Positions 60,031-62,030 of a stretch of 64,000 nucleotides of DNA are shown piece by piece (position 1 is the stretch's first letter; every line of letters starts with the position of its first letter). The notes beneath the pieces were generated by a model. It was not told where the DNA came from, ran no database searches, and was given only the letters and a program-made list of their open reading frames with translations. The translations under genes were made by a program, and so were the position numbers. The stretch comes from Octopus vulgaris. Lineage: Eukaryota. The DNA is taken from the NCBI GenBank assembly GCA_951406725.2, contig OX597818.1:4898001-4962000 (forward strand), in the 5' to 3' direction.

Positions 60031-60049
60031 GATATATATGTCTAGGTAT

Positions 60050-60120
60050 ATGCAGCTGATGAAGACAAATCAAATCTACGTTGTCAAACGTATTTGAAGA
60101 GTCTGAAACCGGTCCTGCAT
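60050..60120 (+). ncRNA. Intact type I hammerhead ribozyme, copy 1
   Basis: atgcag-CTGATGA-agac...gtct-GAAAC-cg-GTC-ctgcat; predicted cleavage after 60114. Confidence 0.9.
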
Positions 60121-60477
60121 TATCCGATTCTAGGTTTTCCATTTTCAGATGTTCTTCCTAGAGGTAAGACAAATTTTTTTCATGTTTGTAGCACACACGC
60201 GTCTTTGGTAGTATATACGCAGTGAAGCTATACAATAGCGTCGTATTTATTACGATTGCTATTTTCCAGTAAATATCGGTGCCTCGTTGTACCATTTATT
60301 TACTTTTATATGTATAATTTTACTCTTACGGGCTATCTTTTACTGGAAAGTAATACTTTCGTATTGTATTATTATTTTCATCGAAACTTCTTCACTGTTA
60401 TCGTTCTGTTAACGTTTTGGCGTCCAGACAAGTGTACTGGCATAGATGTGGCAACATTTGAAATATTGTCTAGGTAT

Positions 60478-60548
60478 ATGCAGCTGATGAAGACAAATCA
60501 AATCTACGTTGTCAAACGTATTTGAAGAGTCTGAAACCGGTCCTGCAT
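60478..60548 (+). ncRNA. Intact type I hammerhead ribozyme, copy 2
   Basis: Identical motif 428 bp downstream; predicted cleavage after 60542. Confidence 0.9.
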
Positions 60549-60731
60549 TATCCGATTCTAGGTTTTCCATTTTCAGATGTTCTTCCTAGAGGTAAGACAA
60601 TTTTTTTCATGCTTGTTGCACACACGCGTCTTTGGTAGTATATACGCAGTGAAGTTATACAACAGCGTCGTATTTATTACGATTGCTACTTTCCAGTAAA
60701 TATCGGTGCCTCGTTGTATCATTTATTTACT

Positions 60732-62030
60732 TATATATATATATATATATATATATATATATATATATATATATATATGTATATATGTATATATATATAT
60801 ATATATATATATATATATATATATATATATATATATATATATATATATATATATATATATATATATATATATATATATATGTATATATATATATATATGT
60901 ATATATGTATATATATATATATATGTATATATATATGTATATATGTATATATGTATATATATATATGTATATATGTATATATATATATATATATATATAT
61001 ATATATATATATATATATATATATATATATATATATATATATATATGTATATATATATATATATATATATATATATATATATATATATATATATATATAT
61101 ATATATATATATATATATATATATATATATGTATATATATATATATATATATATATATATATATATATATATATATATATATATATATATATATATATAT
61201 ATATATATATATATATATATATATATATATATATATATATATATATATATATATATATATATATATATATATATATATATATATATATATATATATATAT
61301 ATATATATATATATATATATATATATAGATAGATAGATATATATATATATGTATACATATATATATACATATCTTTCCTGAGCGCCTATTAATAATAATA
61401 CTGTAATTGTTCCACGTGTTGTTTTTTCTGTTTTCCCGTTTGGATTAAAATTATATATATATATATATATATATATATATATATATGTATACATATATAT
61501 ATACATACATATACATATATATATATACATATATATATACATATACATATATATACATATATATATACATATACATATACATATACATATATATATATAT
61601 ATATATATATATATATATATGCATATATATATTTACATATATATGTATGCATATGTATATGTTTGTATATATATATGTATCTATATAAATATGTATGGAA
61701 ATGTATATATATGTATATATATGTATATATATGTACATGTATGTATATATATATATATGTATATATGTATATATATGTATATATATGAATGTATATATAT
61801 ATATATATATATATGCATGTATATATATGTATATTCATATATGTATATATATATGTATGTATATGTATGTATATGTATATATATATGTACATGTATGTCT
61901 ATATATATATGTATATATATGTTTATATATACATGTATATTTGCATATGTATATTTGTATATATATGTGCATATATATCTATATATGTATGTATATATAT
62001 ATACACATATATGGATGCCTATATACATAT
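60732..62030. repeat. Very long (TA)n/(TATG)n microsatellite block
   Basis: Seen directly; interrupted at 61372-61451 by a fragment of the 14680-type repeat. Confidence 0.95.

Follow-up and report, generated by a model that had tools for sequence, protein, structure and literature searches.

A 64-kb window of the Octopus vulgaris genome (the whole stretch of 64,000 nucleotides analysed here) carries a 428-nt tandem unit that very probably belongs to the retrozyme family and that, with equally high confidence, is mobilised by the machinery of Penelope-like elements (PLEs). Taken together, the observations probably describe a dispersed non-LTR retrozyme that is likely circularised and likely copied by a PLE reverse transcriptase (RT)/GIY-YIG enzyme, most probably of the Hydra clade. 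The element class is already known; what is added here is a further member, an insertion footprint of PLE type, genomic hints of a circular template and a candidate enzyme. No report of a cephalopod retrozyme was found in searches of the published literature, and an earlier listing elsewhere is possible. For animal retrozymes, the copying enzyme and the use of a circle as template are left open in the relevant passages of PMC7229834, PMC7761336 and 10.64898/2026.07.22.740005. The footprint of the present family ties a retrozyme to PLE-type internal priming and follows a strict one-site-per-end rule that is absent from the in vitro PLE assay. Because an intact candidate enzyme exists in the same genome and an assay is described in PMC11167929, the question becomes testable.

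In the window, unit 1 (60039..60466, + strand; numbered u1-u428, with u1 at position 60039) has a 5' junction made indistinct by a short stretch of AT microhomology around 60030-60039. It is followed by a partial unit 2 (60467..60733, +), whose end, at the putative priming site A, is joined to a TA tract. The repeat comprises 1.6 units, is non-coding and contains two type I hammerheads; the GC content of the unit is 35%. The CTGATGA cores lie at 60056 and 60484, exactly 428 nt apart, which confirmed the two identical hammerheads in a 1.6-mer reported in an earlier note on this sequence. Hammerhead 1 (60050..60120, +), recognised by Rfam, folding and compensatory changes in helices I and II, consists of a 6-bp helix I (60050-55/60115-20), the core (60056-62), a 4-bp helix II (60063-66/60101-04) with an inserted hairpin, the GAAA (60105-08) and a short palindromic helix III (60108-13), and its putative cut follows 60114. 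Hammerhead 2 (60478..60548, +) is identical, with cleavage predicted after 60542. The predicted 428-nt monomer, linear or circular (60115..60542, +), is modelled as a branched rod that joins the two hammerheads. The open end of the motif is helix I, so the hammerhead is type I, and a plant LTR retrozyme, with type III hammerheads in its LTRs, was ruled out on this ground; LTR organisation was absent from 196 pooled loci. The earlier description of the ribozyme as minimal has to be corrected, as its helices of 6 bp (I) and 4 bp (II) make it canonical type I by the definition in PMC4209133. The nested hairpins described in stem II do occur, but not at the sizes given, since their two helices share base 60092 and measure 5 and 6 bp.

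Both motifs matched Rfam Hammerhead_HH9 with E 8.4e-5 but, at 28.4 bits, fell short of its gathering score (52), and no match in the whole window reached any Rfam gathering score. The 428-nt unit was not detected in a Tandem Repeats Finder run on the window. The two window copies are completely identical over the first 132 nt and agree at 269/278 positions overall; in a separate count over 264 sites, they differ at 6 (2.3%). The only notable reading frame, 71 codons at 60310-60525, is private to the window copy: in 79/81 copies a T turns codon 25 into a stop, in agreement with the earlier statement that credible coding capacity is lacking. That statement's companion, TA repeats on both flanks, held on the right (1.3 kb), but on the left only about four TA units are present. 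The right-hand microsatellite tract, the inferred target, spans 60732..62012 (no strand assigned), with an interruption at about 61330-61450. TA repeats and retroelement fragments are abundant in the window. Immediately upstream, 59936-60038 is part of another high-copy repeat adjoining the 5' end of the retrozyme, and a MITE-like element with terminal inverted repeats occupies 59554-59929.

To describe the family, the 2.8-Gb assembly was searched. A DNA search gave 1,704 candidates, 40 of which were scored; an exact hammerhead pattern had 151 matches and an internal pattern 357, and both reversed controls had none. The copy-number check proposed earlier therefore revealed a dispersed family with at least 357 matches to the internal pattern. 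Two samples were analysed: 116 loci picked by full length or ribozyme, and a further 88, independent of the ribozyme, that came from the first 100 listed places of the internal pattern. Together with a further variant set, and with duplicates removed, they formed a pooled set of 196 loci. Copies are spread over many chromosomes; their 3' ends are fixed, whereas their 5' ends vary. Upstream of u1 comes u428, so that the copies are circular permutations of the unit. The hammerhead core was intact in 32/35 unselected loci, with the cleavage triplet GUA in 18, GUC in 16 and GUU in 1. Helices I and II showed compensatory changes among family copies, of which that at u41:u52 could be a double CpG decay. 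A hammerhead-like motif arising by chance in a satellite or local tandem duplication, which would suit the Rfam score below the curated threshold and the mere 1.6 units in the window, has practically no probability against hundreds of dispersed copies with fixed 3' and variable 5' ends and against the compensatory changes in the helices.

The nearest-neighbour distance among 158 copies had a median of 3.3% and a minimum of 0.9%. Judged from these distances, the family appears to have been active fairly recently, and present activity would go beyond what they can tell. The recent activity formerly deduced from the identity of the window copies was overstated: these copies differ at 6/264 sites, the family median is 3.3%, and their identity stems from a single insertion event. 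The sampled retrozyme copies are older than the approximately 99-100% identical copies of the Hydra-clade element described below. A divergent hammerhead variant considered as a coding parent had 12 matches, all in the same non-coding 428-nt unit. In four contig runs over 59640-60466, family members occurred in the three guessed to be RNA, as did the neighbouring repeat; the end-to-start joint was present also in the presumed DNA run, and among the joints listed in the four runs none was splice-like at the donor motif described below.

The ends of the copies carry the main evidence for PLE-type mobilisation. The 88 loci of the ribozyme-independent sample contained 118 arms, of which 82 ended at site A (u268-278; 60306..60316, +), 29 at site B (u334-343; 60372..60381, +) and 7 elsewhere. 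These two sites, 65 nt apart, together account for 111/118 arm ends, and each of the 88 loci has at least one end at A or B. Site A, the main 3' end of copies, has AT-rich microhomology to the TA target, and site B is the second 3' end, found at the opposite end of two-armed insertions. TA follows 67/82 A ends and 26/29 B ends; it also stands directly at the 5' junction in 25/59 single-arm loci, and TA targets mask target-site duplications. Among 25 head-to-head pairs, 21 were A+B, none was A+A or B+B, and 4 had one unassigned end; A+B in 21/21 assignable pairs has P ~2e-9 under independent choice. The pooled 196 loci gave the same picture, with 42 A+B, 1 B+B and no A+A among 58 junctions (15 with an unassigned end; one locus entered three times). 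Pooled single-arm loci ended at A in 109/134 cases, at B in 10 and elsewhere in 15. Partial tandems, an inverted 5'-truncated arm, a one-ended tail and a TA target make these arms PLE-type. We infer that site A is a reverse-transcription start, and the A-to-B stretch corresponds to the PLE 'tail', whose published length is 30-40 bp (PMC8557442). B arms stopped in excess at u253-282, where the A cDNA begins (12/48 vs 21/211, p 0.008; one of eight windows, picked after looking), which suggests priming on one molecule. The earlier proposal of copying by a PLE RT has gained support from this footprint, that is, from the A/B ends, the TA targets and a rule like that of the Hydra-clade element.

The distribution of 5' ends bears on the form of the template. 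These ends were scattered round the unit, and the cleavage site (u76/77) was crossed by 57/111 arms, which a linear monomer cut there could not have yielded. At the cleavage site itself, 2/62 arms at risk ended, compared with 2-20% in other 17-nt windows, and a pile-up of 5' ends hinted at by the few top matches was absent from the unselected 88-locus set. Indels near the site were found in 0 of 596 site-copies, against an average of 0.8%. Fourteen pooled arms, from a set enriched for long arms, crossed the site twice, the longest measuring 866 nt. Units within one array share subfamily alleles, as 47/587 diagnostic comparisons differed, compared with 42% between random copies. The seamless crossing fits a circular template, and on these genomic patterns a cut-and-closed circle is probably the template, being the simplest account of these observations.

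The crossing fits equally well, however, if a non-autonomous PLE is copied from linear uncleaved multimers, the hammerhead trimming them or being incidental and no circle forming. Ribozyme cleavage is dispensable for insertion of an anole PLE in vitro, where ribozyme mutants insert and, in the experiments described in PMC11167929, no reads ended at the cleavage site; the catalytic fold, moreover, is not the predicted minimum for the octopus RNA. We nevertheless regard copying from linear multimers as unlikely. The 151 flanks showed neither a common 5' boundary nor a carried-along flank. Arrays observed extend to no more than about two units; if linear copies were truncated at their 5' ends, the masters would become shorter with every round unless the RT switched templates, and template-jump scars were absent from the cleavage site. 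The core and the cleavable triplet were also kept across subfamilies. A linear master dimer was sought through recurrent unit-specific differences and rejected: the commonest occurred in 4/30 arrays, at homopolymer and G/A or C/T sites.

In folding predictions, the 81-nt ribozyme region had a z of -3.5, and the monomer -4.1 as a linear molecule and -6.0 as a circle, with 0/40 shuffles equally stable; 60% of the predicted circle is paired. In the minimum-energy fold the hammerhead lies in a near-miss, non-catalytic register, with CUG paired with CGG. Catalytic folds were 13-17 kcal/mol costlier than the minimum in the model, and the dimeric catalytic form was 3.8 kcal/mol better than two monomers. 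With the whole circle fold, derived from the majority sequence and with variants that are not independent, inherited variants kept pairing more often than private ones (40/77 vs 47/285). With transitions only, the figures were 40/55 and 44/93 (p 0.003, a comparison not independent of lineage).

We then compared the unit with coding PLEs. Whether it serves in every case as the terminal repeat of such an autonomous element was checked, and copies were found to re-enter the unit and not a reading frame. The free 5' flanks matched Neptune-like proteins in 0/151 cases and a Hydra protein in 1/151, and no junction sequence was shared in register among the 151; in two pairs, the flanks contain a further common repeat, offset differently. 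Since the copies are circularly permuted and 150/151 flanks match neither the Hydra nor the Neptune-like proteins, the unit is not a PLE terminal repeat. Its origin as an ordinary solo or partial-tandem pLTR shed by a 5'-truncated coding PLE is thus improbable. This origin would explain why all the insertion features are PLE features (PMC8557442, PMC3846280), and as described in 10.64898/2026.07.22.740005, 24/57 frog retrozyme families are homologous to known elements, 21 of 22 such elements being PLEs with the similarity at their termini. In the octopus, the unit is found joined to a Hydra frame at a single locus. Against such an origin, upstream-extending copies re-enter the unit, flanks match Neptune-like proteins at none and Hydra at one of 151 loci, the other copies of the Hydra family among those listed have their own, different terminal region, and the readable hammerheads of coding PLEs in this genome are other variants than that of the retrozyme. 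At the joining locus (L008, G000:C16:11249777-11253204), a retrozyme dimer is joined in sense to the end of the Hydra frame through 3 nt of microhomology, and an inverted Hydra arm lies opposite. Either template switching or a nested insertion may account for this; by a rough estimate a single join is about the chance rate and carries little weight.

PLE searches of the genome scored 150/6,136 and 150/19,199 candidates and covered some of many PLE families. The candidate helper is a very young Hydra-clade element (L350-L369, e.g. G000:C3:37225000-37240500) with a unit of 2,589 nt and a protein of 717 aa, in tandem arrays of up to five units and with most arms 99-100% identical to the reference unit. 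It is an intact and, from its sequence, apparently active element. Assignment to the clade was made by motifs compared with PMC8557442, Pfam giving no match: RWK, DKT, a CxCX5C linker, CxxC and CxH were recognised by eye, and the element is below 3 kb with a TA target. Its two-armed insertions had one short and one long end in 15/15 resolved cases, from 20 regions picked for paired matches or long frames; the other 5 were unresolved or had an atypical end, and in two cases the short end was deduced from an alignment that overran into TA. The spacing of the ends is 66 nt in the Hydra element, 65 nt in the retrozyme and 35 nt in a Neptune-like family. The hammerhead-like motif of the Hydra element has a non-standard core, with C instead of U as second base. 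Sequence similarity of the unit to the Hydra element or to 30 GIY-YIG loci was limited to short AT-rich matches with E 0.27 or worse, so the partner assignment rests on the footprint. On balance we lean slightly towards the Hydra-clade element as the partner.

The Neptune-like PLE (L091-L093, L070, L074, L083, L085) has an upstream frame and an intact 781-aa RT/EN frame, TA targets, two ends 35 nt apart, a hammerhead whose core is the U3-A8 variant known from Schistosoma (PMC4209133), and CCAAT and CRE-like repeats in its terminal region. As parent it was rejected, for it shows no similarity to the unit and its tail is 35 nt. The window itself contains decayed fragments matching Neptune-like and Hydra proteins at 9964-10334 (-) and 33759-34486 (-).

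A second retrozyme family (L286, G000:C6:118634500-118638000; L256-L283) was found by searching for other hammerheads that share helix III; of the 200 matches, 30 loci were read, and most of these belong to it. It has a 447-nt unit, its own hammerhead with the same helix III, head-to-head arms and two 3' sites about 85 nt apart. The two families are not alignable (score 26, shuffles up to 35), and they share the same layout, including the splice-donor-like motif after the ribozyme. Because the spacing in the second family is about 85 nt, and the Neptune-like PLE too has two ends and TA targets, spacing alone does not fix the partner, and it may be set by the RNA.

A cycle for the first family can be proposed from these patterns. 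Read-through transcription of a copy with two hammerheads, such as that in the window, would supply the RNA, and double self-cleavage, suggested by the conservation of the ribozyme, would free the monomer. A host RtcB-type ligase, as described for other animals (PMC7229834), would close it. A PLE enzyme would then cut a TA tract and start cDNA within the RNA at A, the footprint of this step being visible and its chemistry conjectural; the cDNA would then travel in reverse around the unit and past the cleavage junction, completing two turns at most. In a pattern seen among the copies, the other DNA end would anneal to the cDNA by microhomology and leave a single arm, or would alternatively prime a second cDNA at B, giving head-to-head arms with the 65-nt tail on one side. 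Only insertions holding two hammerheads could seed new RNA. More tentatively, and with a probability we place somewhat below even, the retrozyme would be a circular RNA parasite of the Hydra-clade PLE that has no sequence kinship with it and is recognised by RNA shape, both DNA ends priming the same circle 65 nt apart. If this is true, the geometry of the PLE integration complex can be read from the genome, which also identifies the enzyme responsible for moving an animal retrozyme.

The element resembles the metazoan non-LTR retrozymes of coral, mussel and axolotl described in PMC7229834 in being non-coding, below 50% GC and a few hundred nt per unit, in its canonical type I hammerhead with a short palindromic helix III, in the highly self-paired predicted circle and in its co-existence with PLEs. 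Another trait of the class, head-to-tail repetition of 150-450 bp that includes two or more hammerheads, is represented here by the 428-nt unit and 14 two-site arms. The RNAs reported in PMC7229834 measure 170-400 nt, whereas the octopus unit, taken from genomic DNA, is slightly longer. It differs further in the hairpin inserted in helix II, in its two visible fixed priming sites and in its arrays, which are dispersed among TA repeats, comprise no more than about two units and are often head-to-head. In contrast to the statement of review PMC7761336 that no conserved motif points to the mobilising element of retrozymes, the insertion footprint here does point to one. EN+ Hydra-clade PLEs (PMC8557442) share the TA targets, partial tandems, inverted 5'-truncated arm and one-end tail; the octopus unit, however, is without a reading frame and without alignable sequence. 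In Poseidon of Anolis (PMC11167929), reverse transcription likewise begins internally, at two RNA sites that delimit the tail, and the enzyme cuts and extends both strands of AT-rich DNA in vitro. There, the same start sites serve both strands, whereas in octopus two-armed insertions each end has a different site; the octopus junctions also show TA microhomology. Vertebrate retrozymes viewed as pLTR derivatives (Li, Clavereau, Pollet 2026, preprint 10.64898/2026.07.22.740005) and MRC1-type Chlamys elements (PMC8557442) are also non-autonomous tandems tied to PLEs, but by co-occurrence and sequence similarity, while the octopus link is the insertion footprint. In vitro, 1/9 predicted frog retrozyme dimers was cleaved in the results given in 10.64898/2026.07.22.740005.

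The 5'-splice-site-like motif (60161..60169, +) places a donor 50 nt past the cleavage site and is recognised at motif level. Its offset past the cut is +50 in the first family, +40 in the second (the same 11 letters) and +47 in a third hammerhead family, which is represented by two loci (L261, L264) with a TA 3' end. Acceptor-like sites, read by eye, lie about 105 nt beyond the donor-like motif. The 7-letter core of the motif arises in 1.7% of shuffled units, spliced genomic copies numbered 0 in 288 loci, and a strict fixed-distance pattern of hammerhead plus donor gave 1 match. Because PLEs keep an intron in their 5' region (PMC8557442), the motif may, on sequence grounds, be a relic or a U1-binding signal.

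Further hammerhead-like motifs occur elsewhere in the window. A head-to-head two-armed insertion at 56880-57765 ends in TA and has a minus arm with a tandem of about 460 nt. It carries a hammerhead-like motif at 57577 whose helix III is long, and may represent a further retrozyme family. A short head-to-head inverted pair at 12160-12590 carries U3-A8 hammerheads at 12384 (+) and 12362 (-). Two more hammerhead-like motifs lie in other repeats at 37910 (+) and 42750 (-). The stretch 46080-48100 is a long inverted repeat with convergent arms, TA at its centre near 47095 and hammerheads at 46453 (+) and 47736 (-), in an orientation that is the reverse of the usual PLE inversion.
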